DNA of 64,000 nt from Alphaproteobacteria bacterium. Its GTDB lineage: Bacteria; Pseudomonadota; Alphaproteobacteria; SP197. Below, one piece after another: positions 44,463-62,275 of the stretch (within the stretch, counting starts at the first letter, position 1; each line of letters begins with the position of its first letter). The notes beneath the pieces are model-generated. The model saw only the letters and a list, made by a program, of their open reading frames with translations, did no database searches and was not told the DNA's origin. Where the stretch lies: contig OZ219746.1 in NCBI GenBank assembly GCA_964291265.2, positions 96,001 to 160,000 of the forward strand, read 5' to 3'. The translations under genes were made by a program, and so were the position numbers.

Positions 44463-45767
44463 ATGGTTGCCGTATCGAAGATCGCCCGCGAGAAGGGTAT
44501 CAGGTATTTCCTGATCAGCTTTTCGGACCTTGCCGGCGTGGCCCGCTCCAAGCTGGTGCCGGCTGCCGCGATCGATGACATGGTGGCTGACGGTGCCGGG
44601 TTCGCCGGGTTTGCCACCCACCTCGACATGACGCCGGCCCATCCGGACATGTTTGCCGTGCCCGATCCCGAATCTCTCATCCAGCTTCCCTGGAAACCGG
44701 AGGTCGGCTGGATGGCCGGCAACCTCGTGATGGCCGGAAGAGAGGTCGACCATGGTCCGCGCAACGTGCTGCGGCGCATGATCGTGCGCGCCGGGGACGA
44801 AGGCATGCGTTTCCGGACCGGTGTGGAGTGCGAGTTCCACCTGATCAACGCCGACGGCAGCGACATTCACGATTCCCGCGACATCATGGACAAGCCGTGC
44901 TATGACCAGCAGGCTCTCATGCGTCGCTATGACGTCATCGCCGAGATCTGCGATGCCATGCTGACCCTGGGCTGGGGGCCCTACCAGAACGACCACGAAG
45001 ACGCCAACGGCCAGTTCGAGATGAACTGGGACTACGCCGATGTCCTCGTGACCGCTGACCGCCACACCTTCTTCAAGTTCATGGTGAAATCGATCGCCGA
45101 GAACCACGGGCTGCGGGCCACGTTCATGCCCAAGCCTTTCACGCACATCACTGGAAACGGCTGCCATACCCATGCCAGCATGTGGAATTCGGCAGGTGAC
45201 ACCAACCTGTTCCACGATCCGGACGGGGAGCTCGGCATTTCCCGGATGGGCTACCACTTCCTCGGTGGCGTGCTCAGGCATGCCCGGGCGCTGACTGCGA
45301 TCTTCAATCCGGTGATCAACAGCTACAAGAGGATCAACGCCCAGGTCACGGCGTCGGGCGCGACATGGTCGCCCAACACGGTCTCCTACACGGGCAACAA
45401 CCGCACGCACATGGTGCGGATTCCCGACGAGGGGCGCTTTGAGTTCCGCCTGATGGACGGGGCCACCAACCCCTACCTGGCCCAGGCCGCCCTGCTCGCC
45501 GCCGGACTTGACGGAATTGCCGGCGAGGTCGATCCAGGCGAGCGTCTTGACGTCAACATGTACGAAACCGATGCCGAAGCGTTGAATGTCGAGCGCCTGC
45601 CGCTCAATCTCCTCGACGCGGTTCGCGTGGCTGAGTCCAACACGATGCTGCGTGACTATCTCGGCGACGAGACCGTCAACGCCTTCCTTTCCATGAAGAA
45701 GCGCGAGTGGCTCGATTACACGCGTCACCTGACCCAGTGGGAGCGTGTCAACACTCTCGATTGCTGA
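44463..45767 (+). CDS. glnT: Type III glutamine synthetase / gamma-glutamylmethylamide synthetase-like
   Basis: GAGFAGFA, KPCYDQQALMRRYD, DHEDANGQFEMNW, ATFMPKPF, NNRTHMVR. Confidence 0.88.
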   Translation: MVAVSKIAREKGIRYFLISFSDLAGVARSKLVPAAAIDDMVADGAGFAGFATHLDMTPAHPDMFAVPDPESLIQLPWKPEVGWMAGNLVMAGREVDHGPRNVLRRMIVRAGDEGMRFRTGVECEFHLINADGSDIHDSRDIMDKPCYDQQALMRRYDVIAEICDAMLTLGWGPYQNDHEDANGQFEMNWDYADVLVTADRHTFFKFMVKSIAENHGLRATFMPKPFTHITGNGCHTHASMWNSAGDTNLFHDPDGELGISRMGYHFLGGVLRHARALTAIFNPVINSYKRINAQVTASGATWSPNTVSYTGNNRTHMVRIPDEGRFEFRLMDGATNPYLAQAALLAAGLDGIAGEVDPGERLDVNMYETDAEALNVERLPLNLLDAVRVAESNTMLRDYLGDETVNAFLSMKKREWLDYTRHLTQWERVNTLDC

Positions 45768-45809
45768 ACGTGCGGCCCACCCGTCTCGCTGGCGAGGGAG
45801 CGTGAAACG

Positions 45810-46721
45810 GTGATCCTCGTCTTCGGCTCGCTCAACATGGACTTCATCCTTCAGGTGGAGCGCCTGCCGGCGCCGGGGGAGACGGTGCTCACTCCGGAGC
45901 ACGCCACGGCGCCCGGCGGCAAGGGAGCGAACCAGGCGGTTGCCTCCGCCCGCGCCGGGGCAAATGTGAGCATGGCGGGTTGTGTCGGGCCGGACGACTT
46001 TGGCCGCGAACTGACTGCCATCATGACCGGCGAAGGCATCGACATGACCCATGTCGCCACGGCGACCCTGCCGACGGCGCTGGCTGTCGTCACGGTCGAT
46101 TGCGAGGGCGCCAACCAGATCGTCGTGTCGAGCGGAGCCAATCGAGAGGCCCGGCAGGCATATGTCGGGGATGACATGCTGAACGCGGCGACGACCCTGC
46201 TGCTGCAACGCGAAGTGCCTGTCGGCGAGTGCGCGGTCCTGGCCCGCCGGGCCCGGAACGCCGGCGTGCGTGTCATTCTCAATGCCGCACCGGCGGGTCC
46301 GGTTGATGGCGATGCGCTTGACCTCCTGATCGTCAACGAGGTTGAGGCACAAGCCGTCGCCAGGGAGTCGGGCCTGGACGGGCTTGCTCCAATCGATCTT
46401 GCACACCACCTGGCGCGCCACGATGGCGTGACAACCGTGGTGACACTGGGCGAGCGCGGTGCAGTCGCCGTCGGTCCCGGTGAGACCTGGAGCATTGGCA
46501 GCCTTGCGATCCGGCCGATTGACACCGTGGGGGCCGGCGACGCCTTTTGCGGCACCCTCGCCGCGGCTCTTGACATGGACATGCCGCTTCCTCGGGCCCT
46601 GCACCGTGCCTGCGTTGCCGGCGCCCTTGCCTGCCTTGAGCCGGGCGCCATGCCGGCCCTGCCGCGTTCCGAGGCCGTTGATGCCCGCCTCGAGGAACTG
46701 GCGCCGGCGGTTGCCGTGTGA
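45810..46721 (+). CDS. rbsK: Ribokinase (PfkB family)
   Basis: GSLNMD, PGGKGANQA, DTVGAGDAF. Confidence 0.88.
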   Translation: MILVFGSLNMDFILQVERLPAPGETVLTPEHATAPGGKGANQAVASARAGANVSMAGCVGPDDFGRELTAIMTGEGIDMTHVATATLPTALAVVTVDCEGANQIVVSSGANREARQAYVGDDMLNAATTLLLQREVPVGECAVLARRARNAGVRVILNAAPAGPVDGDALDLLIVNEVEAQAVARESGLDGLAPIDLAHHLARHDGVTTVVTLGERGAVAVGPGETWSIGSLAIRPIDTVGAGDAFCGTLAAALDMDMPLPRALHRACVAGALACLEPGAMPALPRSEAVDARLEELAPAVAV

Positions 46722-48031
46722 TGACTGACCGGCGGCGTGCCGGTCTGCCGCGGCTGGTGGCCCTCGATGCCCTCGTGGCGTGCCTCGAGGACCGGCGCCC
46801 GCTCGATCATGTGCTGGAACGGGACAAGCGGTTCAACAGCCTTGACTCCCGCGACCGGGCGCTCATTCATGCCGTGACCGCGGGGACCTGCCGCCGGCTG
46901 GGCCAGATCGACGCGCTGATCGCCGCCAGCCTCGAACGACCGTTGCCGGTGCGAGCGCGCACTGTGCGCGCCATCCTGCGCCTCGGCATCGCCCAGCTGC
47001 TGTTTCTCGGATTTGCGCCCCATGCCGCCATCGACAGTTCGGTACGCCTTGCCCATGCCCGTGCAAGGGGCATGGCCCCCTTCGTCAATGCCGTTCTGCG
47101 GAGGCTGCAAAGGGAGGGAAGGTCGCTGATGGCCTCCCAGGATCCGACGGTGCTGAACACGCCCGCCTGGCTCTATCGGTCATGGCGGGACGCCTGGGGC
47201 GGCGCTTCCGCGTCCGCCATCGCGAACGTGAACCTCGCCCGTCCGGAACTTGACATCACCGTGGTGGACGACGCGCAAGCCTGGGCGACACGGCTGGGGG
47301 GCCGCGTCCTTTCGACCGGCAGTCTCAGGGTACCTTCAGCCAGCCCTGTCAGGGATCTCCCGGGGTATGAATGCGGACGCTGGTGGGTTCAGGATACGGC
47401 CGCCTCGTTTCCGGCCCGTCTGCTCGGCGACATTGCCGGACGGCGGGTTCTTGATCTGTGTGCGGCACCGGGTGGCAAGACGGCGCAGCTTGCCGTTGCC
47501 GGGGCCCGCGTCACGGCGGTCGACGTGTCCGGACAACGCATGGCGAGACTGCAGGCCAACATGGAGCGCCTCGGTTGCACGATCGAGACATGCATCGCGG
47601 ATGCGGCCACCTGGCGTTCGTCAACGCCGTTCGACGCCGTGCTGCTCGATGCGCCGTGCAGCGGCACCGGCACCATACGCCGACATCCCGACATACCGTG
47701 GATCAGGGACCGGACGGACGTTTGCCGTCTCGCGTCCCTGCAGCGGCGGATGATTGCCAATGCTCTTGCCAACCTCTCTCGCCGGGGAGTTCTCGTCTAC
47801 GCGGCGTGCTCCCTGGAGCTGGAAGAAGGAGAAGCGCACCTCGGCCACCTGGGGCATGGCTGCCACGTCGATGCCATTCGTCCAGACGAGGTTCCTGGAC
47901 TCACCGAGGCGGTGACAGAGGAGGGATGCCTGAGGATACTGCCCACGCACCTTGCCCGGGAGGGAGGTCTGGACGGCTTTTTCGTCGTGCGCTTGCGACA
48001 GTCGGGTGAAGCTGGTACCTCAGTCGTGTGA
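46718..48031 (+). CDS. rsmB: RsmB/NOP 16S rRNA m5C methyltransferase
   Basis: NusB-like N-terminus, DLCAAPGGKT, LDAPCSGTG. Confidence 0.88.
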   Translation: MMTDRRRAGLPRLVALDALVACLEDRRPLDHVLERDKRFNSLDSRDRALIHAVTAGTCRRLGQIDALIAASLERPLPVRARTVRAILRLGIAQLLFLGFAPHAAIDSSVRLAHARARGMAPFVNAVLRRLQREGRSLMASQDPTVLNTPAWLYRSWRDAWGGASASAIANVNLARPELDITVVDDAQAWATRLGGRVLSTGSLRVPSASPVRDLPGYECGRWWVQDTAASFPARLLGDIAGRRVLDLCAAPGGKTAQLAVAGARVTAVDVSGQRMARLQANMERLGCTIETCIADAATWRSSTPFDAVLLDAPCSGTGTIRRHPDIPWIRDRTDVCRLASLQRRMIANALANLSRRGVLVYAACSLELEEGEAHLGHLGHGCHVDAIRPDEVPGLTEAVTEEGCLRILPTHLAREGGLDGFFVVRLRQSGEAGTSVV

Positions 48032-48687
48032 AGCAGTCCCTGCGCATTGCTCCTTCCATCCTGTCGGCCGACTTTTCCAGGCTCGGTCAGGAAGTCCGCG
48101 CCATCGACAGTGCCGGGTGTGACCGCATCCATATCGACGTGATGGATGGTCACTTCGTGCCCAACCTGACACTGGGCGCTCCGATCGTCGCGGCGCTGAG
48201 GGACTGCAGCACGAAGCCCTTCGACGTTCACCTGATGGTAAGTGCTCCCGATCATCTCATCGGGGACTTCATCAGCGCTGGCAGCGACATGGTGACTGTG
48301 CATGTCGAGGCAACACCGCATGTCCATCGCACCCTGCAGGTCATCCGTGAGTCAGGCGCCGGAGCCGGCGTTTCCCTCAATCCCCAGACCCCCGCCGTTG
48401 CCGTCGCCGCACTGCTTGAGCAGGTCGATCTCATCCTTGTCATGACCGTCAATCCGGGGTACGCGGGACAGACGTTCATCAAGGGTGTCCTGCCGAAGAT
48501 CGCGGAACTGAGGGCGATGATTGACGCCGGGGGACATGATATCGATCTCGGGGTCGACGGCGGCATCACACCCGCCACCGCGCACCTCGCGGCGACGGCC
48601 GGCGCCGATGTGCTGGTGGCGGGCACGGCCGTGTTCGCCGGCGGCCCTGGGCACTATGCCGACAACATCCAGGCGCTCCGGGTTTAG
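48028..48687 (+). CDS. rpe: Ribulose-phosphate 3-epimerase
   Basis: IAPSILSADF, HIDVMDGHFVPN, MTVNPG, VDGG. Confidence 0.96.
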   Translation: MKQSLRIAPSILSADFSRLGQEVRAIDSAGCDRIHIDVMDGHFVPNLTLGAPIVAALRDCSTKPFDVHLMVSAPDHLIGDFISAGSDMVTVHVEATPHVHRTLQVIRESGAGAGVSLNPQTPAVAVAALLEQVDLILVMTVNPGYAGQTFIKGVLPKIAELRAMIDAGGHDIDLGVDGGITPATAHLAATAGADVLVAGTAVFAGGPGHYADNIQALRV

Positions 48688-48689
48688 CG

Positions 48690-50387
48690 GTGGTGCACCA
48701 GGCAAGCGAACCGGGTTTCGTGTCCGATCCGCTGGAAGGACTCCGGTCGGTACTCTTTACAAGCCGGATCTATCGTTTCTTCCTGGCGCGGGAAGTACCG
48801 GACAATCTCCTGCAGAGTCTCAACGATCCGTGGCCAGGAGATGCAGCCCGGGGTCACGCCATCAGCGAGGGGCACTGGAAGCTGGCGAACCAGACATTCG
48901 TCTTCGATCATCGGCTGGGTCCGCCCGACTGGTATCCTCCGGGGGCCTGGAACGGCTGGCTCGAGGAGTTGCACGGCTTTACATGGTTGCGTGATCTTCA
49001 GGAAGCGGGAGGACACGCCCGCCAGATTGCCCAGACGGCCCTCACCGGATGGATTGCCGATTGCGGATCCTGGAACCGCTTTGCCTGGCGACCCGACGTT
49101 CTGGGACGGCGCCTTGCCTCGTGGCTGACGCATCACGGATTTCTCATCGGCGATGCCGATCCCCGTTTTCGTCAGCAGTTCTTCAGGAGCCTCACGGAAC
49201 AGACGCGGCATCTGGCTCGCGTGGCGACGCGGGGATCCTCGGGTCTCGGCAGGATCGCCGCCCTGCGGGCCCTGATCTTCGCCGGAATCACCCTGCCGGG
49301 GTCGGTGCGGCGCCTGCCGCAGGTCATGCGCCTCCTCAAGCAGGAACTGGATCACCAGATGTTGCCGGATGGCGGACAGCGCGAACGCAATCCCAGCGTC
49401 CAGTATCTTCTGTTGCGTGATCTCGTGGACATTCGCCTGGCCCTGATCCAGGGCCGCCATCCCGTTCCCGGCTGGCTCCAGCAGACCATCGACCGTGCCG
49501 CGCCCATGCTCCGCTTCTATCGACACGGTGATGGCGGACTGGCGCTCTTCAACGGGTCGCGGGAGGAATCGTCCCACCTGATCGACAATGTGCTGGCCAT
49601 CGGCCAGGCCACGGGACGGCCGCTGCGGCGCACACCGTACACGGGTTTCGAACGTCTCGAGGCGGGCAGTACCGTCGTTCTCGTGGATGCCGCCTGGCCT
49701 CCGGCAGCCGAGTGGACCGCGCGGGCCCATGCAGCCCCTCTTGCCTTCGAGGTGAGCTGTGGCAGGGAACGGCTGATTGTCTCCATGGGCGCCTGGCATG
49801 GCCCGGACAGCGACTGGCAACAGGCTGCCCGAGAGACCGCGGCGCACTCGACCATGACGGTGGACGATCGAAGCCTGGCGGAGTTCAGAAAGGATGGGCT
49901 CCTCGGCCGGGGACCACGCGAGGTGGAGGTGGAACGGCGCGAACGGCAGGGCAATGTGAGTCTTGTCATGAGACATGATGGATACCAATCGCCGTTCCGC
50001 CTGATCCACCACCGCACGCTTGCCCTCGCTGCAGATGGCCATGTGCTGAGAGGCGAGGACGTTCTCGACGGTCCTGGCGGCGAACGCTTCTCGCTGCGCT
50101 TCCATCTTCACCCCGATGTCCGGGCAGCGGTTGTGCACGACAGCCAGAGTGTTCTCCTCAGCCCGAGGTCCGGCAAGGGATGGCGGTTGAGCGTCAAGGG
50201 GGGTGTTCTGGAACTGGTGGGCAGTGTCTATCTGGGCGCGGGCACCATGCGCACGTCCCAGCAGGTGGTCGTGTCCCGGGGGCTGAACGGGGTCAGGAAC
50301 GTCGTCACGTGGGAGCTCGAACGCATCGAGTCGAGACCGAGAAGGAAACGGAAGCGTTCACACGGTGAAGAACTGGCTCTCGTCTGA
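48690..50387 (+). CDS. Heparinase II/III-like protein
   Basis: LHGFTWLRDL, HGDGGLALFNG, AHAAPLAFE, RFHLHP; synteny with rsmB-rpe. Confidence 0.8.
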   Translation: MVHQASEPGFVSDPLEGLRSVLFTSRIYRFFLAREVPDNLLQSLNDPWPGDAARGHAISEGHWKLANQTFVFDHRLGPPDWYPPGAWNGWLEELHGFTWLRDLQEAGGHARQIAQTALTGWIADCGSWNRFAWRPDVLGRRLASWLTHHGFLIGDADPRFRQQFFRSLTEQTRHLARVATRGSSGLGRIAALRALIFAGITLPGSVRRLPQVMRLLKQELDHQMLPDGGQRERNPSVQYLLLRDLVDIRLALIQGRHPVPGWLQQTIDRAAPMLRFYRHGDGGLALFNGSREESSHLIDNVLAIGQATGRPLRRTPYTGFERLEAGSTVVLVDAAWPPAAEWTARAHAAPLAFEVSCGRERLIVSMGAWHGPDSDWQQAARETAAHSTMTVDDRSLAEFRKDGLLGRGPREVEVERRERQGNVSLVMRHDGYQSPFRLIHHRTLALAADGHVLRGEDVLDGPGGERFSLRFHLHPDVRAAVVHDSQSVLLSPRSGKGWRLSVKGGVLELVGSVYLGAGTMRTSQQVVVSRGLNGVRNVVTWELERIESRPRRKRKRSHGEELALV

Positions 50388-50424: not shown

Positions 50425-50519
50425 GGAGGGGGATCGGTTCCGGTGGACCGCCCGGTCTTCAAAACCGGTGAGGGGCGCAAGGCGTGCCTGGTGGGTTCGA
50501 CTCCTGCCCCCTTCCGCCA
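50425..50519 (+). tRNA. selC: tRNA-Sec(TCA)
   Basis: 95 nt; 8-bp acceptor stem GGAGGGGG/CCCCTTCC, anticodon arm CCGGT-CTTCAAA-ACCGG, long variable arm, GGTTCGACT, G-CCA end. Confidence 0.95.
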
Positions 50520-50531
50520 TCGCGGGGATTC

Positions 50532-52721
50532 ATGGATATCGTTCTGATCGGCGGTGGTCATGCCCACGTCGAGGTTCTGCGAAGCGCTCTCATGACACCC
50601 ATCTCCGGCGCGCGCTTCACCCTGGTCACGCGGGATGTCGCGACACCCTATTCGGGGATGATTCCCGGGTATCTCGCGGGACATTATTCCCGGGCGGAGG
50701 CGCACATCGATCTTGTGCCCCTTGCAGCGCGGGCCGGAGCCCGGCTGATCCATGCTGCCGCCACCGGCCTGGACCCCGAAGCGCGCCAGGTGCAATTCGA
50801 GAACCGTCCCCCCCTGCGTTTCGATGTCGCCTCGCTGAACATCGGTTCCCGACCGGCAAGCGACGGAATCGCCGGAGCCGGGGTGCACGGTCTGCCGGTC
50901 AAGCCAATCGACCGCTTTCTTGAACGCTGGACGGACGTGGAAGCGGTGGCGTGCAGGACCACAGGGCGCTACCGCGTGACGATGGTTGGTGGGGGTGCGG
51001 CCGGCGTCGAGGTCGCCATGGCTCTCCATCGCCGCCTCGCGGACCACATGGACGAGGCCGGGCGTGATTCGGCATCGCTCGTCTTCACCGTCGTGAGCGC
51101 CGATTCGGCCTTGCTGGCGGATCACACGTCCCGCGTGGGCAAGATGCTTGCCCGGGCCCTTGCCGGTGCCGGCATCGGCATCTGCCTGAATGCGCCTGTC
51201 GTGGCACTTGAGCATGGTCATGTCCGCCTGGATGACGGTTCCGCGTTGGAGAGTGATGTCACAGTCCTTGCCACCGGAGCTGCCGCGCCGGACTGGATCC
51301 GCCACACCGGACTCGCCGTTGACAGCAGGGGATTCGTCGCCGTCGATGGCTTCCTGCGTTCGATATCCCACCCGTACGTGTTCGCTGCCGGCGACATCGC
51401 CGGCTTCACACCAGGTGAGCTGCCCAAGAATGGCGTCCACGCCGTGCGCCAGGGGCCGTTTCTGAACAGCACCTTGAGGCGCCTTGCACACGGGCGGGAA
51501 CCAGTGGCCTACAGACCCCAGCGGCACACCCTGGCGCTTGTCTCGACCGGAAGGGCGCGCGCGGTGGCCTCACGGGGACCGGTCGCGGTGTCAGGGCGCT
51601 GGGTGTGGCGGTGGAAGGATCGCATCGACCGGCGGTGGATGCACCGCTATCGGGATCTGCCGATGATGGACGAGGTCCTTCCCATGCGGTGCGGCGGATG
51701 CGGCGCCAAGGTGCCGTCGCGCGTGCTCGAACGGGCGCTGAGCCGTCTGGCTGTTCCCGCCATGCCCGGTGTCCTGGTAGGCCTCGACGCGGCCGACGAC
51801 GCGGCGGTTCTCGCGCCGGTCCCGGGCAAGGTGATGGTGCAGACGGTCGACCAATTCCCGGCCTTCGTTGACGATCCCTGGCTGTTTGGCCGCATCGCGG
51901 CGGTTCACGCACTCTCCGATGTCCACGCCATGGGAGCCGAACCCCATGCCGCCATGGCACTCGTTGGTCTGGTTCCCGGCGAGGCAGACACCATGGAAGA
52001 CGATCTCGTGCACATGCTCGAAGGAGTCCTTTCGATCCTTCGCGAGGAGGGTTGCGCCCTGGTGGGCGGCCATACCGGGGAATCGGACCGCGCCGCCCTG
52101 GGGCTGGCCGTCACCGGTCATGTCGACGAGTCGGCGCTCATTCGTGCTTCGGGCCTCGAACGGGGTGACGTCCTTCTTCTGACAAGACCACTCGGCACCG
52201 GGACACTGCTCGCCGCCAACATGCGCGGCGAGGCCGAGGGTGCGTGGGTCGGGAGCATTCTCGCTGCCATGCAGCGCAGCAATGGACCGGCGGCGCGCCT
52301 TCTCGCCGGTGCCGGCGTCCGTTCGATGACGGACGTGACCGGTTTCGGGCTTGCCGGACACCTGTGGGACATGGCGCGGGCCTCGGGCGTCGCCATCGAG
52401 ATCGGCAGGGTCCCCGCCTATGCCGGGGCGCTCGAACTCCTCGCCCGGGGCCGGGCCAGCACGCTACATCCCGGCAATGTTGCGGCGCTGAAAGGCATCC
52501 TCGATGCCGATGTGGCCGACCCGATCCTGTTTGATCCGCAGACGGCCGGAGGACTCGTTGCCGGACTTCCGGAGGAAAGGGCAGATGAGGCGTTGGCCCT
52601 CCTCCATGAAGCAGGCGAGCTCGGCGCCGCGCTGATCGGACGGGTGACCGGTTCGGAGGCCGCAGCTCTCTCGCTCGGGCCGGGCGCTCAGCCGTTCACG
52701 TATTCCGGCACGAACATGTAG
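50532..52721 (+). CDS. selD: Selenophosphate synthetase fused to an N-terminal FAD/NAD-dependent oxidoreductase
   Basis: GGGHAH and GGGAAGVE (Rossmann), FAAGD; then MRCGGCGAKV, DDAAV, GGHT, TDVTGFGLAGH, DPQTAGGL. Confidence 0.93.
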   Translation: MDIVLIGGGHAHVEVLRSALMTPISGARFTLVTRDVATPYSGMIPGYLAGHYSRAEAHIDLVPLAARAGARLIHAAATGLDPEARQVQFENRPPLRFDVASLNIGSRPASDGIAGAGVHGLPVKPIDRFLERWTDVEAVACRTTGRYRVTMVGGGAAGVEVAMALHRRLADHMDEAGRDSASLVFTVVSADSALLADHTSRVGKMLARALAGAGIGICLNAPVVALEHGHVRLDDGSALESDVTVLATGAAAPDWIRHTGLAVDSRGFVAVDGFLRSISHPYVFAAGDIAGFTPGELPKNGVHAVRQGPFLNSTLRRLAHGREPVAYRPQRHTLALVSTGRARAVASRGPVAVSGRWVWRWKDRIDRRWMHRYRDLPMMDEVLPMRCGGCGAKVPSRVLERALSRLAVPAMPGVLVGLDAADDAAVLAPVPGKVMVQTVDQFPAFVDDPWLFGRIAAVHALSDVHAMGAEPHAAMALVGLVPGEADTMEDDLVHMLEGVLSILREEGCALVGGHTGESDRAALGLAVTGHVDESALIRASGLERGDVLLLTRPLGTGTLLAANMRGEAEGAWVGSILAAMQRSNGPAARLLAGAGVRSMTDVTGFGLAGHLWDMARASGVAIEIGRVPAYAGALELLARGRASTLHPGNVAALKGILDADVADPILFDPQTAGGLVAGLPEERADEALALLHEAGELGAALIGRVTGSEAAALSLGPGAQPFTYSGTNM

Positions 52722-53845
52722 GCTCCCGCGTCGCGGAGCGCCGGGTCGTCGCTCGAGAGACACGTCGAGCGCACATCCTGAATGATCCGGCCGGCCGCAG
52801 TCCGGGTCCAGAACCAGGCGATCACGGCTCCGGTATCGATGGCACCGGTGTAGGCTGCGGCAGACTCCATGTAGTAGGCCTTCAGGTCTTCCGAAGCGAG
52901 GCGCAACTGGTCGATTCCGGCCCCCCGAGCCTGCGTTTCGCCATCGAGCCAGGCGGTGAGCAGCCGGGCGGCGCCGGGCGCGTCCTTGCCCGATCCACCC
53001 AGGGCGGTGCGGCCGCGCCTTGCGACGCTCATCTCATACCAGGGACGCAGGCTGTCGACTTCCTGGAGCAACGGGCCGTCGCGGTTGACGGCCAGGAGGT
53101 CAAGGACATCCCGGTCCTCCCCGTCAGGCGGCGCCTCTTCGGTGAAGTCCTCGAGAACGGACCCGGCTGGTCTGTCGAAGAGGTCGAGGAGGGCCATGAG
53201 GACGCGCCGCTGGAACGGCGCATTGTCTGCCGTACCGAAGGGTCGACCCAGCGGAAACGGCACCCAGAGAGCGCGCGGCGGCCTCACATCCTCGGCCTGA
53301 CCGCGTACCAGAGCGATGAGTGCCGTCGCCAGTCCCTCGTCCTCCATGAATTTTGCCAGTCCGCTCACGGCGCACGTGCAAAGAGGTCAGACGGGGGCGA
53401 GGATGACCGTGTTGACGCCCTCCGCCTTCATCTCGCCGGCAAGGTGGCGCGCCGCGCTTTCCATGGCGAGGGGATCGGTCGCGCCCATGAACGAATAGTG
53501 TGTCTTCGCCACGGAACCGATTGCACCGGTGCCGGCGACCTCCAGGAGCCGCTGCAGTGGGAAGACGACATTGATGTCTTCCTGGAAACCCGTCCGATCG
53601 TGGGATGTCGAAACATGATCCTGAACGACATCCGCCGCATCCTCGACAGGAATGCTCCGGTAGTCTGCCGAGCCCTCGCTGAATGCCTGATCGCCACGCA
53701 GCCGCAGTCCGGCCGAGGACACGAGTGCGACCCGCCGCATGGCCGGCGGCGCCGGTTCGATCCAGGGCGAGCCCGGGATATCGGGACAGGAGAACTCGGT
53801 CAGGAATTCCGCCATGTCCGGGTTGAGGTCAGTCATGCGTACCAA
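52688..53845 (-). CDS. Selenoprotein, PrdB/GrdB (reductase selenoprotein B)-like with C-terminal extension; 385 aa, Sec153
   Basis: ORFs 53387-53845 and 52688-53368 are in frame across TGA 53387-53389, reading ILAPV-U-PLC; VALVSSAG, DINVVFP, HYSFMG, PPRALWVPFPLGRPFG; adjacent selC/selD. Confidence 0.88.
53352..53382 (-). promoter_or_regulatory. Putative bacterial SECIS hairpin
   Basis: UGA CCUC UUUGC AC GUGCGC [CGUGA] GCGGAC UG GCAAA; apical loop 17 nt after UGA with G at its second position. Confidence 0.65.
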
Positions 53846-53861
53846 GGGCGCCTCCTCACGG

Positions 53862-55307
53862 TCAATTGACGCTGTCGACGGTTTCGAGCATCATCGGTGC
53901 GAGAGTATCGACCGTGCGTTCTGCCCAGTCCATCCGTGGCACCGCGTCCATCATGGCCTTCTGGCCGGCTTCCAGGCGATCCAGTTCGGCCGCCAGATCA
54001 ACGGTCACGATCTCTCCATCGGCGACCACGCGCTCGCCATCCACCCAGACATCCTTGACGGCACGTTCGGCAGCGACCACGATGAGTGTGCGCAGGGGCT
54101 CTCGGACTGGCCGCATCGCCGGGTGAGCGAGATCGATCGCCACGAGATCGGCCCTGGCTCCGACGTTGATCTTCCCGAGATCATTGCGCCCCAGGGCCGT
54201 CGCGCCGCCGACCGTGGCGGCATGAAAGATGTCCTGGTAGTCAAGATCGGAGACACTGCCGGCCACGAGGCGGGCGGCAACGGCCGCCGTGCGCATCTCG
54301 TCCAGCATGTTGTGCGGATAGGTGTCGGTGCCCAGGCCCATGACGATCCCGTGCCTCCGGTAACCGCCAAAGGTGTCAAGTGCGATTCCGCGGCGCGAGA
54401 ACACGGTCGGACAATGGGCAACGCCGGCGCCGCAGTCACGCATGAGATCAAGATCGCGACGTGCAGTCCAGTGCAGCCACGGATGATGATCAAGGAAGAT
54501 GCAATGGGCAATCGTGCTTCGTTCATCGAGCACCCCGATGTCGTGCATCCACTGGATCGGCGAGGCACCGTGACGCCTTTGCATCTCGTGGAACTCGGTC
54601 ACGGATTGCGCGGCATGGATCGTCCACGGGAGCTTGCGTTCCCTCGCCGCTGCGTGGCTGTCGCGCAGGGTCTCCTCGCTGCAGGTGTCGACCTGGGAGG
54701 GGGCAACCATGCCCGAAAGGCGGCCTGAGGGATGCTGGCGTGCCAGCTCGATGACGGCCAGCGCCCGCTCCAGCCCCCGGGCGCCGGCGCCTGGCAGCCA
54801 GTCGTAGTCGAGGCTGTGCCCGTCCGTCGTCAACCAGCGTGCATCGCGGAACATCGGTGCGGCGACGGCACGGATGCCGCTCGCAGCAAGGGCGTCGACC
54901 CAGCCGTCGTAGGGCATGGAAAGATCGACCGCCGTGGTGACTCCCGATAGCAGCAATTCGGCGAGCGTCACCTTGAGACAGGCCTCGCGTCCGTCATCGT
55001 CCGTCGGGTTGAAGACCGGCAGGTGTTCATAGAGCGAGCTGTGCCAGAAGCCCGGGGACCGTGTTTCGTCGGTGATCCCCTTGCGCATCGCCTCGCTCTG
55101 GGCGTGGGTGTGGATGTTGACGAGGCCGGGCATGACGAGGAGGCCCGAGCCGTCAATGCGCCGGCTGGCCGGAACGTCCAGGCCCTTGCCGACACGGGTG
55201 ATGGCGCCGTTGGCGAAGGCGAGGTCGGCATGCCGCAGGTAGACATGCCTTGTTCCGTCCCAGGCCACGAGCCAGGCAATATCGTGGATGAGGGTTGTGT
55301 CATGCAT
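53862..55307 (-). CDS. Metal-dependent amidohydrolase (AtzA/SsnA/deaminase-like)
   Basis: PGLVNIHTH, SGVTT, IHAAQ, IAHC, GLGTD, GARADL. Confidence 0.88.
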   Translation of the reverse strand: MHDTTLIHDIAWLVAWDGTRHVYLRHADLAFANGAITRVGKGLDVPASRRIDGSGLLVMPGLVNIHTHAQSEAMRKGITDETRSPGFWHSSLYEHLPVFNPTDDDGREACLKVTLAELLLSGVTTAVDLSMPYDGWVDALAASGIRAVAAPMFRDARWLTTDGHSLDYDWLPGAGARGLERALAVIELARQHPSGRLSGMVAPSQVDTCSEETLRDSHAAARERKLPWTIHAAQSVTEFHEMQRRHGASPIQWMHDIGVLDERSTIAHCIFLDHHPWLHWTARRDLDLMRDCGAGVAHCPTVFSRRGIALDTFGGYRRHGIVMGLGTDTYPHNMLDEMRTAAVAARLVAGSVSDLDYQDIFHAATVGGATALGRNDLGKINVGARADLVAIDLAHPAMRPVREPLRTLIVVAAERAVKDVWVDGERVVADGEIVTVDLAAELDRLEAGQKAMMDAVPRMDWAERTVDTLAPMMLETVDSVN

Positions 55308-55649
55308 GGTTTGGCACCGCCATCATAAGGGCAAGCGCGACAGGGGACCACCCGACAGACATGCGCACGCTTGAAGAAGACGACATCATGCCGCTGGCCG
55401 CCACCGCCTGGACCCTGGGACCCGGCGGTCCGCATGACGGCTGGCTCGGACTGGATGCGCTCTGTCGCTTGGCGTCACGATCGATCTCCTGGCTCTCGAA
55501 GAACTCGGCGACGACTTCGACATGGCTTCGCGCCCGGCGTCCACAGGATCGGCAGAACGATGAACCCGCAGCGGTTCCGGGTCTCGTCAGGCCGTTGCCC
55601 GACCGGGCGCTCTGTGACCTGAGCGGTTCGGCACGGGAAGAATGCTAAG

Positions 55650-56035
55650 CCGAAGTTCCAGCACCGTTCAGAGGTATCGTTATGAATGTATTGACGATTG
55701 AGAGAATCGCGTGTGTCGCTACTGGGAACGCTAGAGGCGCACGCCGAGGTGGTTCAGGGCTTTTTTATGGAGCGTCGTGGGCCGCGTGGTGACCTGGAAG
55801 GGCCGCAGGGTTTCGACGTTCTCCATGGGCCAGGAGGAGAGACTGGTGGCGGGGGGCTCATGCGGTTGGGGACGATGTCCACGTACATGGCAACGTACAT
55901 GGGGGCAACAGCTGCCTGTGTCAACATGGTGTTTCACCGTTACATGGGAACTCTTGCATGTTGTCTCTGTGCGATTTTATCAGTAAGATCAACTAGTTGG
56001 TGTGGTTGTATTGCTAAAGTCGTCCGGAACTTCGG
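55650..56035. mobile_element. 386-bp MITE / non-autonomous element
   Basis: 10-bp TIRs CCGAAGTTCC / GGAACTTCGG, 6-bp TSD GCTAAG (55644-55649 and 56036-56041), lower GC than flanks, no transposase. Confidence 0.75.
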
Positions 56036-56129
56036 GCTAAGTTGAGGACGCGCGAGACAGCCCAACGTGCCGCTGTCTTCTGCAACCACCGCTGCAGCCG
56101 CTGATCCATGCGGCGGCGAACGCCGGTTG

Positions 56130-57164
56130 CTAGACCTTGACCGTGCCACCGGCCTCGCGCCATGCGGCAATGCCGCCGATCATGTGGCAGACATTGCGCA
56201 CGCCGCACTGGCGCGAACTCTCTACCGCCATCGCCGAACGCTCGCCGAAGGCGCAGTAGTAGACAAGTCGATGGCCAGGACGCCCGGCGAGGGCGCGCAG
56301 CGCCCCGCCGGGTTCGATCATCTCCGCGAGGCGATCGTATGGCGCATGCACCGAGCCGGGGATCGTTCCTTCGCGGGCCCGTTCACCGGCCTCACGCAGG
56401 TCGACGAGGATGTCGTCGGGCCGGCGGTCGTGCATCACATCGCGCGCGTGCATCGCGCACTCGGGATGCGCTTCGTCCTCTTGATCTCGGCCGACGCTGA
56501 GATTCGCCGGAACAGCCACGTCCATCATCCTGGGGTCGCTGAGATCGAGGCTGTCCATCAGTTCCGCGTATTCGGCGGGCGAGGCAACCTGGAGGCGAGG
56601 GTTGAAGCGCCTCTCCTCGCCGATGGTGCTCACCGTGTCACCCTTATAGTCGTGGCCGGGATAGACCAGGGTCTCGTCGGGCAGCGTCAGCAACTTGCCG
56701 AAGAGCGAGTCGTACTGCTGCAACGCGTCGCCGTTCTGGAAGTCTGTGCGGCCGGTGCCGCGGATCAGCAGCGTGTCGCCGGTGAAGACCCGGTCCGCCA
56801 TCACGAAGCTGTAGGAATCGGCGGTGTGCCCCGGCGTGTGGAGTGCGCGCAGGCTCACGCCCTCGACCTCGATCGGGTCGCCATCGTCAACGCGCATCGA
56901 GACCACGTTCACCGGCGCCTCGCGGCCCATCACGGTGATGCAACGGGTGCGGTCGCGCAGTGCCGCCATGCCGCTGATGTGGTCAGCGTGGACATGGGTA
57001 TCGAGCACCTTGGCAAGCGTGAGGTCAAGTTCGTCCAGCAGTGTGAGGTAGCGCTCCACCCGCTCCTCTACAGGGTCGATGATGAGCGCCTCGCCCCCGG
57101 CTTGCCCGCCCAGCAGGTAGGTGTAGGTGCCCGAATCCTGATGATGGAGTTGGCGAAAGATCAT
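56130..57164 (-). CDS. Persulfide dioxygenase (ETHE1-like MBL) - rhodanese fusion
   Basis: THVHADHISG, TPGHT, FTGDTLL..G.GRTDF, YPGHDY; C-terminal YCAFGERS. Confidence 0.9.
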   Translation of the reverse strand: MIFRQLHHQDSGTYTYLLGGQAGGEALIIDPVEERVERYLTLLDELDLTLAKVLDTHVHADHISGMAALRDRTRCITVMGREAPVNVVSMRVDDGDPIEVEGVSLRALHTPGHTADSYSFVMADRVFTGDTLLIRGTGRTDFQNGDALQQYDSLFGKLLTLPDETLVYPGHDYKGDTVSTIGEERRFNPRLQVASPAEYAELMDSLDLSDPRMMDVAVPANLSVGRDQEDEAHPECAMHARDVMHDRRPDDILVDLREAGERAREGTIPGSVHAPYDRLAEMIEPGGALRALAGRPGHRLVYYCAFGERSAMAVESSRQCGVRNVCHMIGGIAAWREAGGTVKV

Positions 57165-57583: not shown

Positions 57584-60130
57584 TCATCGGACCTCCGGCG
57601 GGGAGAGGCGGCTCAGCAGGTCATGGCTGTCTGTCTCGGGGGACGCGGCGTCCGGCCTTTCGACGGTGTAGCCAAGGCTCTCATACCCTCGGACGCGCTT
57701 GTCGCTCATGCGCATGAGTGTCGGCACGGAGAGGTCGACATAATCGTGGACCAGCACTTCGTGCTTCGCCGCATGCAGGCGGTGGAGACGGCCGACATAT
57801 TGTGCCAGCGTGCCTCTCCATGAGATCGGCATCGTCAGGAACAGCGTGTCGAGGCGGGCGTCGTCGAAGCCCTCGCCGACATAGCGCCCCGTTGCGATGA
57901 TCACCCGCTCTTGCGTCTCGGGGATGCCTTCGAGACGCTGCATGATCTCGTGGCGCTGCCTGATCCCCATGCCACCACGGAGAACGAGCACGTTCCGGGC
58001 AAAGCGGCCGAGCCGCTCCGCAAGATGGTGGGCATGGTCCCTGCGCTCGGTGAGCAGGATTGGCGACCGGCCCGACTCCAGCGCCTGCAACACGTCGTCG
58101 AAGATGATGTCGTTGCGATCCTCGTCGGCGGCCAGAGCGGCGTAGACATGCTGGATCGGCGGGCGCTCCGCGTCCATGCGGGCCGGCAGCCTGAATCCCG
58201 TCGGGCGCAGGATCGCCCGGTGTCCGAAGGGTCGCTGTCGGGCCTGCGCCTTCGCGCTGGTCCGGAACCGGACGGGACCGCACTGCATGAAGACAATCGG
58301 ATGGTGACCATCCCGGCGCGTGACCGTTGCGGACAGGCCGAGGACGTATGTCGCCTTGGCCCGGCGGGCGACCGCCTCGAAGCTGACGGCGGAGACATGG
58401 TGGCACTCGTCGACCACGAGATGCCCGTAGTCGGCGATGATGTCGTTGACTTCACCCTTGCGCACCAGACTCTGGATGACGCTGACATCGACAATGCCGC
58501 CCGGCTTGCGCCTGCCGCCGCCGATTTGTCCGATCGCGGTGGCAGGGAGATCGAGGAACGCCGCAAGCCGCGCGATCCACTGTTCCATGAGCTGGCGGCG
58601 GTGAACGAGCACCAGCGTGTTGGTCTTGCGGGCGGCGATGACAGACGCGGCGACAACCGTCTTGCCGAACCCGGTTGCAGCCGAAAGCACGCCGGTCTCG
58701 TACGGCAGCAGTGCATCGGCGGCGGATTGCTGTTCCGCTGTCAGGCTTCCGAGAAAGGTCGTTTCAATCGGCCGGCCGGGATTGCGCTCGTCGCGCATGT
58801 CCAGGGAGACGCCCAGTTCATCCAGCAACCCTTTCAACGCCTCGCCGCAGCCGCGAGGCAGGCCGATGTGGTGAGAAAGCAACTCGGCGCAGGCGACGAT
58901 GCGCGGGATTCCGAAGGTGGAGAGCCGCATCGCCTGGGCGCTGTAGAAGGCCGGGTTCTGGAATGCCGCGAGACGCATGAGTCGGTTGACAAGACCGGGC
59001 GGCAGACTGGCGCGCGGAACGTAAATCTGGTCGCTCAGAACCGCGTCGATCCGCTTTGGCAGCGGTCCGGCAATCCGGGGCAGCGGCCGCTGCCGCGACG
59101 GCGCCGCACGCCAGGGCTCGTCATCCTCGTCGCCGAGTGGCAGACGCAGCCCGACAACCCGGCCCTGCCGGCCGGCCTCGTCGGCGATGGCGGCCGCCTC
59201 GGCCGGGGCGAGGCGGCGCATGGACGAAAGAAATGCCCACTGGTCGGCATGGGGCTCGAAGCTGTCGTCCAGAAAGACGCTGTTGCCGTCCTCCCGCGGA
59301 GCGCCCTGCAACGGCAGCGCGATGAGATTGCCGAAGCCGCCGGCGGGCACGGTGTCCTGGCTGGGAAAGAACCGGTCGTAGGACGCGAACCCGATATCCG
59401 GGTTGCGTTCCATCGTCTCGGTGATCAGATGGGCGCCGAGACGGCGTGCGAGGACGGCGGGAACCGGTTCGGCGAAGAAGATCCAGACATGCCCGCCATT
59501 GCCCGAACGCGAGCGTTCGAGGGCCGCCGGTACATCCTTCGAGCGGCAGGCTTCAAGAAAGGCGCCTGCGTCCCGCCGCCAGCTCGCCTTGTCGAAGTCG
59601 GCGGCGAGAAACCGACAGGTGTCGTCCGCAAGCATGGGATAGACGCCGATCGTGTGACGGCCGCGCAGATGCCCGTCGATCGCCTCGTCCGTCACCTCCC
59701 GGAATGCCTGGTTGGGACAGGCACCGCACTTGACGCGCGGCTTGTCGCAGATGCGGGGCACCCACTCGTTGGCGCAGACCGGCGCGTAGCCTGCCTTGCT
59801 CTTCGCGGCATTTTCCCAGCGCTTCGAATAGACATCCTCGCGACCACGAAACAGGGATCTGAACAGTGCGATCTTTTCGCCCGTCGGCGAACGGTTGGTG
59901 ATCGGTCCCGCGGACGGCAGGACGTCCTTCAACGCCGTGGAGCGGCCCCCGATCTCGACGAGACGGACCTCGAGGGCCGCCTTCTCGACCTCAAGGCGCG
60001 CAAGCCGCCTGCGAATGAGCGCGGCTTCCCCGTGGTGACATGAAGCGTGCGCCAACGTGTCCCCGTTTCGTGGATCGACCCGTGCATGGGGGCAAGCAAG
60101 CAGGATAGGACTCCTCGAAAGGCCCGGCAA
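57584..60130 (-). CDS. TOTE-type archaeo-eukaryotic primase domain + DEAD/DEAH (ResIII-like) helicase; start uncertain
   Basis: ERSRSGNGGHVWIFF, GNLIALPLQG, AATGFGKT, VVDECHH, GLSAT, QYVGRLHR. Confidence 0.82.
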   Translation of the reverse strand: MPGLSRSPILLACPHARVDPRNGDTLAHASCHHGEAALIRRRLARLEVEKAALEVRLVEIGGRSTALKDVLPSAGPITNRSPTGEKIALFRSLFRGREDVYSKRWENAAKSKAGYAPVCANEWVPRICDKPRVKCGACPNQAFREVTDEAIDGHLRGRHTIGVYPMLADDTCRFLAADFDKASWRRDAGAFLEACRSKDVPAALERSRSGNGGHVWIFFAEPVPAVLARRLGAHLITETMERNPDIGFASYDRFFPSQDTVPAGGFGNLIALPLQGAPREDGNSVFLDDSFEPHADQWAFLSSMRRLAPAEAAAIADEAGRQGRVVGLRLPLGDEDDEPWRAAPSRQRPLPRIAGPLPKRIDAVLSDQIYVPRASLPPGLVNRLMRLAAFQNPAFYSAQAMRLSTFGIPRIVACAELLSHHIGLPRGCGEALKGLLDELGVSLDMRDERNPGRPIETTFLGSLTAEQQSAADALLPYETGVLSAATGFGKTVVAASVIAARKTNTLVLVHRRQLMEQWIARLAAFLDLPATAIGQIGGGRRKPGGIVDVSVIQSLVRKGEVNDIIADYGHLVVDECHHVSAVSFEAVARRAKATYVLGLSATVTRRDGHHPIVFMQCGPVRFRTSAKAQARQRPFGHRAILRPTGFRLPARMDAERPPIQHVYAALAADEDRNDIIFDDVLQALESGRSPILLTERRDHAHHLAERLGRFARNVLVLRGGMGIRQRHEIMQRLEGIPETQERVIIATGRYVGEGFDDARLDTLFLTMPISWRGTLAQYVGRLHRLHAAKHEVLVHDYVDLSVPTLMRMSDKRVRGYESLGYTVERPDAASPETDSHDLLSRLSPPEVR

Positions 60131-60686
60131 ACATCGCCGACGCCGCTTGCGCTTCGGCTTGACCGCTGCATGGGGACAATGCCGTCGAGAAATCGGTCGC
60201 GTGTACTCAGCGTGGTCATTCGGGCGCCACGGTGCACCGTGGCGTCACCGAGGCGTGGCGCCGGGACGGCAAGGCCCGGTCCTCGTCGGTGCGGTGCTTG
60301 CGGTGGAAGGCATGCCCATGCCGGTCGACCGGTTCGCCCAGGATTTCACTCTCGTATCGTCCTGACCGGGGCTGCCTTCAACTCGGGTGTAGTTCTCGTA
60401 TGGCGAAGCCAAGTCATTGAATTATCACGGTTGTGCGGTCGTGATGGAGCGGCGAATACGGGGTTTCGTGACAATTGTCCGTTTCAGGACCGGATCTTGT
60501 CACGACAGCAGGGCTTGGCGGTGGATGCGGGAACGCTCCGCGGCGCAAGATGCGATATGATGCTCCCAAGCTCGGGCCTCACCCAGCGATCGAAGCGGAA
60601 TGGCCTGCTACAACCCGGCGCATGGTTCGCCGGGCACGGCTTGTCGGCCTCGACCTGGCAGACTGCCCTGGAGCACGAGACCACGC

Positions 60687-61199
60687 TCATCGACGGGGTT
60701 CCGCCAGATCCTCAAGCCGCGCACTGACTTCGTGTGAGGGCAAGAACACCGTCTCATCTGATTGCCACGCCTCGAGCGCCCGACCGAGAATCGATCTGCT
60801 GCAGACTGCCGCAGCCTTGAGCTCGTCGACCACCCAGAGCACGCCGTGGACCCGCAGCCCGTTCGCCTCAGCAACTCTGCGCAGCAGGGCATCGCCCGTG
60901 AGCAGAATGCCTGGATAGGCTTGAGCAGTGGCCAGGCAGAAGCAGTCGTTGGCGGAGATGCCCGCATGACGTTCCTTCACGGCGAGCGCCAGGCCGACTT
61001 CTTCCGATGTCAGGTCGTGCGTGATCATGCCGGCCTCGTCGAGCGCCCGCCAGTCGGCTTCCGAAAGGCCGAGTACTTCTGACGCCCGCACGGACAATGA
61101 AATCACGAATTGACAGGGCAGATCGCAAACGACGCCCAGCAGACCTCCCTTGCGGAGGTCGATCAGGCAGGAGGCGTCGTTGACGATGACGCAGGTCAA
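60687..61199 (-). CDS. PIN-domain protein (putative toxin)
   Basis: VNDASCLIDL, SANDCFCL, LLTGD..LR, HGVLWV. Confidence 0.8.
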   Translation of the reverse strand: MTCVIVNDASCLIDLRKGGLLGVVCDLPCQFVISLSVRASEVLGLSEADWRALDEAGMITHDLTSEEVGLALAVKERHAGISANDCFCLATAQAYPGILLTGDALLRRVAEANGLRVHGVLWVVDELKAAAVCSRSILGRALEAWQSDETVFLPSHEVSARLEDLAEPRR

Positions 61200-62275
61200 T
61201 GGATATCAGGGCCGCTGATCTGCCGCTCGACGGACTCGAGGGACTGGTTGAGCAGTGCGGCCGCACGCACCGGCGAGATCAGCTTCTCGCCCATCGCGCG
61301 GGAGACGAGTCGCTTGAAGCGACAAGGCTTCTCGAAAGCCGCGAACCCATGCTCGGCCTGGATCGGGTCCGGTTCCGACTTCCGCCAGGTCCGGGCAAAC
61401 GTCGCGAACGCGCGCTGCACGGAGCCCTCGGACAGCACGCCCACCTGCCCCAGACGCATCAGCAGGGCCGCCGCCGACACGCCGTAGATGTGCTTCAGAC
61501 GGACGATCTCGTAGTAGGTAACCCTGCGGCGACCGGCCCCGACCTTGTCCCGAAGGCTCTGGCCAGGAACCAGAAACGCGCCGGCGAAGCGGTTCATCGC
61601 TCGCTCGAGGTTGATCGCGGGATGGCCGGTGGAACGGATGATCCGGTGCGCGAGCTCATGGGCCAACGTGAACCTCCTGCGCTCGACATTGACCCGGCTG
61701 GACACCACGACGGCCTCAGCGACGATCTCTCCGCCTCGCAGAACGTGGCACGAGAGCCCATTGATACTCTCCGGGAGGTCGGCTTCCACCACCTTGATTC
61801 CCTTGTCTTCAAGCAACTCGCACAAACTGGGAATCGGGTCGAGGCCAAGAGCCCAGACTCCGCGGAGTTCATCGGCCCGCTCGTCGATCCGGGTTTCGCT
61901 CGCGACGCAGTCGTGTGGCCGCGTCTCCACCCAGTCGACGCCAGCCTCGATGTCGAGGATGTGCTCGATGGCGAGGTAACGCTCCAGGCTGTCGATCACA
62001 ACCGCCTCGGCCCTTGCGCGATCGCGGGCCGAAGCGCCGGACTGCTTGCGGAACTCGACTGCTTCGAGCACCTCGACCTGCGCGCTCATCAGGAAATCCA
62101 GCGAGACGCCAAGAGTCTTCCCGAGGCCGACCAGCACGGCCGAGGAAGGCAGCATCTTGCCCGCCTCGTACTTGCTGACCGCCTGAGCGGTCACTTTCGG
62201 ATTCGTCGCGTCCGCGAGCGCCCGCATCGACAGACCTGCCCGTTTCCGGGCGAGACGGAGCCGTTGCCCAAACAT
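61196..62275 (-). CDS. XRE HTH + ImmA/IrrE Zn-metallopeptidase
   Basis: RLRLARKRAGLS...SKYEAG; RFTLAHELAH; E..MNRFAGAFL. Confidence 0.9.
   Translation of the reverse strand: MFGQRLRLARKRAGLSMRALADATNPKVTAQAVSKYEAGKMLPSSAVLVGLGKTLGVSLDFLMSAQVEVLEAVEFRKQSGASARDRARAEAVVIDSLERYLAIEHILDIEAGVDWVETRPHDCVASETRIDERADELRGVWALGLDPIPSLCELLEDKGIKVVEADLPESINGLSCHVLRGGEIVAEAVVVSSRVNVERRRFTLAHELAHRIIRSTGHPAINLERAMNRFAGAFLVPGQSLRDKVGAGRRRVTYYEIVRLKHIYGVSAAALLMRLGQVGVLSEGSVQRAFATFARTWRKSEPDPIQAEHGFAAFEKPCRFKRLVSRAMGEKLISPVRAAALLNQSLESVERQISGPDIH

Follow-up and report, generated by a model that had tools for sequence, protein, structure and literature searches.

A PrdB-like selenoprotein gene beside an amidohydrolase gene: probable single join of a selenocysteine-machinery cluster to a dpp-type operon in one alphaproteobacterial family

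The 64,000-nucleotide stretch of an alphaproteobacterial genome considered here (the window; G000:C1:96001-160000, from a source genome, G000, of 4.8 Mb) carries the gene for the selenocysteine (Sec) tRNA, selC, a gene for an oxidoreductase-SelD fusion, a gene for a PrdB-like selenoprotein, an amidohydrolase gene and, further upstream, a gene for a persulfide dioxygenase (PDO)-rhodanese fusion (Table 1; coordinates are window positions unless a contig is named). A first-pass annotation proposed these genes together as a candidate selenium-dependent catabolic module with sulfur and selenium handling at the same place. Comparison with other genomes shows that this four-part module is not a conserved system: the Sec machinery is the sole partner of the selenoprotein gene that recurs on many branches, the amidohydrolase link is confined to one clade, and the PDO link to one terminal branch. 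We consider it probable (about 0.62) that a cluster of Sec machinery and its client gene became linked, in a single event, with the tail of a dpp catabolic operon, and that shared transcription has held the two together. Most likely, the hydrolase and the sulfur dioxygenase arrived by separate rearrangements within one family and are not parts of a single selenium pathway.

The family was sampled with 33 genomes, 29 of which contain an ortholog of the selenoprotein and a true selC. Among these 29, selD faces the selenoprotein gene in 28 and the amidohydrolase gene lies immediately upstream of it in 26; the wider order is dppB-dppC-dppD/F, DUF917 (on the opposite strand), amidohydrolase, selenoprotein, selD, selC and, often, selB-selA. 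In the window, exactly 16 bases separate the amidohydrolase stop codon from the TTG start of the selenoprotein gene, with GAGGAGG 5 nt ahead of the TTG, and the pair is convergent on selC and the fusion gene, as the first-pass annotation had described; the 3' ends of the selenoprotein gene and selD overlap by 34 bp. The proposed operon is probable and faces selC-selD in 26 of 29 genomes of one family, but it is not conserved beyond that family. No terminator-like site was found between the two genes in a promoter and terminator scan that performed at chance level. The arrangement is broken or lost in three genomes of the family. In G020 approximately 8 kb, including a restriction endonuclease gene, and in G008 approximately 25 kb part the amidohydrolase gene from the selenoprotein gene, and in both the parted amidohydrolase gene remains with DUF917 and dpp. 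G006 has neither an amidohydrolase match nor DUF917; there dppD/F precedes the selenoprotein gene, which retains its UGA and the hairpin that follows it. In G000 itself the dpp genes lie approximately 128 kb away.

The limits of the association are best seen in a midpoint-rooted tree of 111 rows from 114 loci (two duplicates and one frameshifted locus were dropped; supports are SH-aLRT values). All 23 amidohydrolase-linked rows fall into one 26-row clade (SH-aLRT 100), with none among the 85 rows outside, and the six PDO-linked rows all belong to one 7-row tip, whereas Sec machinery adjoins 17 of the 85 outside rows, scattered over many branches. In particular, no amidohydrolase gene was found within 7 kb of 64 selenoprotein loci in outside genomes (upstream sequence of 2 kb or more being available for 52), and Sec machinery is present at 12 of these loci; 20 further loci include one with a 26% amidohydrolase match approximately 3.5 kb away and four with Sec machinery. 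Similarly, in an even sample of the class (301 genomes), 19 genomes outside the family have the long form of the selenoprotein, 23 have the amidohydrolase clade and five have both, an overlap above the sample background, all five genomes being large (4.9-5.9 Mb); in none of the five are the two genes adjacent. Viewed from the amidohydrolase side, the selenoprotein gene lies directly downstream in 8 of 8 metagenome loci at 72% identity or more, and in none of 72 at 51-68% identity. The 70 metagenome loci below 66% identity have a dppD-type ATPase in 43 cases, a family-5 binding protein in 32 and the selenoprotein in none; at 20 amidohydrolase loci from genomes (18 outside the family and two in-family paralogs), the selenoprotein, selD and DUF917 were found in 0 of 20, and several have dihydropyrimidinase and carbamoylases as neighbours. 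One outside locus, L254, combines a dpp-amidohydrolase arrangement with hydantoinase A and DUF917. Elsewhere, then, this amidohydrolase clade resides in dpp-type ATP-binding cassette (ABC) or hydantoinase operons, and the recurrent linkage of amidohydrolase, selenoprotein, PDO and selD that a conserved module implies was not found across independent lineages.

By sequence criteria, the PrdB-like gene is a real selenoprotein gene. From its TTG start it begins with the M-V-R motif that also opens the proteins of relatives (residue numbers such as U150, Cys153 and Cys155 are counted from ATG 53836, not from TTG 53845), and when the one in-frame TGA is read as Sec, a single frame runs to 52688, with the motif U-P-L-C-T-C (UxxC) at this position. 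TGA occupies this codon in 22 of 22 genomes of the same genus; among the best 80 of at least 598 confirmed GTDB stretches with homologs, 79 loci have TGA within P-V/I-U-P-x-C, the remaining one being without a motif match. Uninterrupted homologs have Cys aligned at the UGA position, three genome homologs carrying a Cys codon there. Downstream of the UGA, the majority codon frequency at conserved residues 152-160 is 0.95 as compared to 0.66 elsewhere (25 family sequences), a synonymous constraint reached by none of 91 other windows, and a G-led loop is found 17-23 nt downstream in 100 of 101 distinct UGA windows and in none of three Cys windows; these counts come from related sequences and are statistically non-independent, and the loop G doubles as the first base of a Val codon, which qualifies the conservation of the loop.

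The protein matches Pfam PF07355 (GRDB) with 36.8 bits (cut-off 22), and its best NCBIfam match is TIGR04483 PrdB, for which it reaches 76 bits where the cut-off is 300 and a Cys homolog attains 129; the GrdB-type models give it lower scores. Its architecture comprises a GrdB/PrdB-type alpha/beta domain and a helical C-terminal domain of approximately 145 aa, the C-terminal open reading frame (ORF) having no Pfam family match. A structure model from 11 sequences (pLDDT 82.6) is alpha/beta to about residue 237 and helical thereafter; a single-sequence model was discarded (pLDDT 35). Neither the selenoprotein sequence nor its profile retrieved anything usable from the PDB, and Foldseek gave no match at E <= 0.001. 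The best VIA-align hits (Z 9.4, root-mean-square deviation 3.2, 135 aligned) are LacI-type sugar-binding domains over residues 34-237, which, as far as the model goes, is a generic match to a common alpha/beta arrangement. A search with the selenoprotein profile at E <= 0.001 yields 3,849 clusters of 50% identity, and split halves make up most of the top-ranking ones. The long form is widespread, with the confirmed stretches coming from Alpha- and Gammaproteobacteria, Desulfobacterota and Dehalococcoidia; no relative was found in viral contigs.

As to the Sec machinery, the SelD fusion scores 272 bits on TIGR00476 (cut-off 125) and 426 on TIGR03169 (cut-off 310), and 469, below the cut-off of 700, on TIGR04369 (fusion_not_SelD); by tblastn it is the only selD match in the genome. 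The selA and selB genes are located on contig C2, so that selA, selB, selC and selD are all present. None of the five molybdopterin-family matches in the genome has an internal stop. In one family genome, G003 (91% complete), the only selD matches are broken and lie on another contig, and the selenoprotein UGA and hairpin are kept (G003:C31:38504-39336, G003:C11:61090-62265).

For the amidohydrolase, the best of 52 models is PRK06151 (NF004801), with 352 bits, under its cut-off of 416; SsnA (TIGR03314) scores 99.5 against 455.5. The metal and active-site set H66, H68, H231, H268 and D328 is invariant in 18 sequences and agrees with the HxH, H, H, D pattern. The solved relatives, namely AtzA, 8-oxoguanine deaminase and methylthioadenosine/S-adenosylhomocysteine deaminases, are distant. 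The Glu of the HxxE motif is a catalytic residue in COG0402-type nucleobase deaminases. Here, Gln234 is invariant in 18 of 18 sequences (HxxQ), where deaminases and AtzA show Glu, and an invariant Glu238 follows; since Gln replaces the Glu of the solved deaminases, standard deamination is doubtful. Judging from gene context, the substrate is likely an imported N-heterocycle or amide. SsnA, the amidohydrolase of selenium-dependent molybdenum hydroxylase loci, is an earlier case of such an enzyme encoded close to selenium genes; it belongs to the same superfamily, but the window protein is nearer to PRK06151 and travels with dpp ABC genes.

The PDO-rhodanese gene had been placed about 0.8 kb upstream on the same strand, and the measured distance is 822 bp. 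Overlooked at the time was that this gap carries an opposite-strand DUF917 remnant and a miniature inverted-repeat transposable element (MITE). The fusion protein matches PDB 4ysb (E 2.5e-75) and the persulfide dioxygenase-rhodanese fusion (PRF) BpPRF (5ve3, residues 1-342, E 6.9e-59). It is adjacent in 8 of 29 family genomes, all on one terminal branch (an ortholog within 5 kb of the amidohydrolase gene; one more case is interrupted by a contig end); in G013 a 91% ortholog lies 1.6 Mb away, and in G012 there is no match at E <= 1e-50. In close relatives an entire opposite-strand DUF917 gene stands between PDO and amidohydrolase, and a single transcript of the two is therefore unlikely. Judging from this distribution, the PDO-rhodanese gene is a recent neighbour of the amidohydrolase gene and drops out as a member of the module. 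Of the 29 family genomes, 23 have DUF917 (Pfam S-Me-THD) itself within approximately 3 kb of the amidohydrolase gene, the copy being broken in two of the 23, and in the terminal branch DUF917 and PDO are convergent neighbours. No other copy was found in G000, by a search whose control was positive in 2 of 14. Against the thiohydantoin desulfurase models, the intact DUF917 proteins of relatives score 90 (NF058529, cut-off 440) and 116 (NF058532, cut-off 450). The gene is tandemly duplicated in four close relatives (L022, L044, L045, G005) and broken in G000, G009 and G018.

Table 1. Features of the selenoprotein locus, in window positions
Feature	Position	Strand	Basis or remark
tRNA-Sec gene selC, anticodon UCA	50425..50515	+	Rfam RF01852, 73.2 bits (gathering 47); ARAGORN
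NADH-dehydrogenase-like/SelD fusion, Cys form (CGGCGAK), 729 aa	50532..52721	+	TIGR03169, TIGR00476
Long-form PrdB-like selenoprotein, 385 aa from TTG 53845	52688..53845	-	
Hairpin resembling a Sec insertion sequence (SECIS), apical loop CGUGA, ~20 nt past UGA	53352..53382	-	
In-frame UGA codon, U150	53387..53389	-	
Ribosome-binding site GAGGAGG inside the 16-bp gap	53851..53857	-	sequence
Mononuclear-type amidohydrolase, PRK06151 (chlorohydrolase/deaminase-like) clade, 481 aa	53862..55307	-	
DUF917/S-Me-THD-like 5' remnant, frameshifted	55361..55551	+	intact in most relatives at the same place
MITE, 386 bp	55650..56035	not assigned	ends common with IS1634-family elements
PDO-rhodanese fusion (PRF type), 344 aa	56130..57164	-	Pfam; PDB matches

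The MITE has 10-bp terminal inverted repeats and a 6-bp target duplication, and 20 full-length copies (83-100%) are present genome-wide, along with several autonomous elements of approximately 1.95 kb with the same ends, assigned to the IS1634 family (NF033559, 343 bits, cut-off 100). It is polymorphic, being absent from two conspecific contig sets (392-bp skips in X2 and X3). Ten 101-nt ARAGORN calls of tRNA-Arg(acg) (G000:C2, e.g. 454367, 2554974, 3649778, 3659657) mostly lie approximately 1.6 kb from the left ends of IS1634 copies and are likely false calls on the insertion sequence or on a structured element within it. The flanks of the locus hold, at 44463-50387, genes for a type III glutamine synthetase-like protein, ribokinase, rsmB, rpe and a heparinase II/III-like protein, which lie upstream of selC in only part of the genus, and, at 57584-62275, a TOTE AEP-primase/helicase, a PIN-domain protein and a helix-turn-helix-IrrE protein, a likely mobile or defence cassette.

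Several further observations concern selenoproteins elsewhere. In G000, L175 (G000:C2:3712487-3712915) is a second likely selenoprotein, of the UGSC family (NF041046, 113.5 bits, cut-off 125) and with one in-frame TGA; a second PrdB-like copy, degraded by stops and frameshifts, lies at G000:C2:1242830-1243105. When the genome was scanned de novo for UGA codons, the known selenoprotein was missing from the hairpin-passing rows; the scan is therefore insensitive and gives no count of the selenoproteome. Many genomes of the genus have one or two further long-form paralogs (38-47%) in unrelated contexts, one of which, L158, adjoins soxY-soxZ and a flavocytochrome c sulfide dehydrogenase (set L156-L160). 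A DinB-family gene stands beside the selenoprotein gene in five outside loci (L092:8398-9060, L038, L065, L083, L100); at four of the five, Sec machinery lies nearby.

Among the proteins of the locus, the PDO fusion, the SelD fusion and the family of the selenoprotein belong to kinds already known. Marine PrdB-like UxxC selenoproteins ranked among the most abundant selenoproteins in the Sargasso Sea and Global Ocean Sampling surveys, with a function assigned by homology only (PMC1088965, PMC2398784); they share the PF07355 match and the UxxC motif with the window protein, and the passages on them in these surveys mention neither a two-domain long form nor gene neighbourhoods. Clostridial PrdB and GrdB have a homologous catalytic domain with Sec followed by Cys three residues on (PMC13188914); the window protein differs in falling far under the family cut-offs, in having approximately 145 extra C-terminal residues and in the absence of prdA, prdC and grdA nearby, the genome having no PrdA or GrdA match in searches whose controls were silent. 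Client genes placed beside Sec machinery, e.g. fdhA beside selA-selB-selC, are a described pattern (PMC1794560), and several relatives have selA-selB-selC-selD at this locus; the differences are that the client here is PrdB-like and that in G000 selA-selB are on contig C2. The NADH dehydrogenase-like/SelD protein is the commonest SelD fusion described (PMC4561486), and the one in the window, an N-terminal fusion in Cys form, appears to be an ordinary member with no difference found from that description (PMC4561486, TIGR03169). BpPRF is matched over its full length by the PDO-rhodanese protein, which has no conserved link to selenium genes. Neither the two-domain long form nor the operon that it shares with an HxxQ amidohydrolase across the family was found described in open-access main texts, although supplements may list such sequences and BSepDB (PMC13326102) may include the family; section 9 (selenoprotein operons) of PMC13188914 and passages of bioRxiv 10.1101/2022.07.06.499078 mention neither.

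The scenario that we favour is that two unrelated clusters were joined in the ancestor of the family, one consisting of the Sec machinery and its client, the other being the end portion of an operon for dpp-type uptake and catabolism, with the amidohydrolase gene in it. SelB would read the UGA via the hairpin, Sec being supplied with the help of SelD and selC encoded at the locus and selA-selB on contig C2. The selenoprotein is predicted to be a stand-alone thiol/selenol oxidoreductase, in which Sec150 would be the attacking residue, directed at an electrophile such as a disulfide or persulfide, and Cys153 would then resolve the resulting adduct, with no pyruvoyl PrdA partner involved. The junction would have been kept, likely, since the selenoprotein gene is expressed from the amidohydrolase transcript, and persulfide oxidation by the PDO-rhodanese is likely an independent activity. 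Among the homologs, two Cys forms lie amid glutathione S-transferase genes and one Sec form follows yghU, a weak hint at glutathione chemistry.

Several observations weigh against this scenario. The four family genomes without an ortholog of the selenoprotein also lack a true selC, selD and an ortholog of the amidohydrolase; G017 and G022 have lost DUF917 and the dpp genes close by and yet retain the amidohydrolase-selenoprotein pair, and the junction has outlived every other neighbour but selD. Cys155 is present in all family orthologs, with Arg in most homologs. The search for the pyruvoyl subunit PrdA was without a positive control signal, and the glutathione S-transferase neighbours represent few lineages, with one clade of Cys homologs counted twice. 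Several of these points would fit a two-step pathway, restricted to the family, in which the amidohydrolase, once joined, acquired the role of supplying what the selenoenzyme reduces; an amino-acid derivative, ring-opened or deaminated, with a C-N bond cleaved by Sec would be one example. The junction retained in 26 of 29 genomes, its presence in all close metagenome relatives, its survival in G017 and G022, the family-wide Cys155 and the lack of the amidohydrolase ortholog in Sec-less genera all speak for such coupling. We nevertheless regard it as unlikely: the pairing has a single origin, three family genomes break or lose it yet keep the UGA, Cys155 also occurs in G006 and in three outside rows that have no amidohydrolase (L103, L117, L120), and each protein is widespread without the other.

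Less probable by far is a salvage route for sulfur or selenium, whereby a thio- or seleno-heterocycle would enter through dpp, H2S or H2Se would be set free from it by the amidohydrolase and DUF917, SelD would capture the selenide and PDO-rhodanese would remove persulfide. The frequent proximity of DUF917, the composition of L254 and the convergence of DUF917 and PDO in the terminal branch are in its favour; it is weakened because DUF917 falls far under the desulfurase cut-offs and is broken in G000, where it survives only as a remnant, and the PDO gene is adjacent in 8 of 29 genomes only, while the amidohydrolases outside the family have no neighbouring selD. It is still harder to see in the window protein selenoprotein B of a true D-proline (or glycine, sarcosine or betaine) reductase with the pyruvoyl subunit encoded elsewhere: despite the GRDB match, the UxxC motif and PrdB as best model, the score of 76 against 300 and the extra C-terminal domain argue otherwise, and the pyruvoyl PrdA/GrdE family (PF09338) was found in 0 of 61 relatives and 0 of 5 further PrdB-like-rich genomes, with no GrdA in G000, no control genome having given a signal in either search. 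Finally, the TGA might be a real stop, leaving two ORFs or a pseudogene. The databases do carry the protein mostly as separate halves, and the folding energy of the hairpin is no better than that of shuffled sequences (z -0.3 to -0.6); the alignment of TGA with Cys, the nearly fixed synonymous positions of codons 152-160, the loop present with UGA and absent with Cys, and a complete set of sel genes make this reading extremely improbable.

Taken together, these comparisons bear on a selenoprotein type whose reaction has been assigned only from its homology with a clostridial enzyme, the partner of which was not found here (with a silent control), and whose long form is widespread, lacks a solved relative in sequence searches and is in most cases annotated as two pieces by gene callers. 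It is possible, if doubtful, that the family recruited this widespread UxxCxC two-domain selenoenzyme as the reductive step of a dpp-fed heterocycle catabolism, with the HxxQ amidohydrolase making its substrate; if true, the PrdB-like selenoproteins that are abundant in the sea and have no pyruvoyl partner would thereby gain a first lead to a substrate. The amidohydrolase link is a testable lead, limited to the family.

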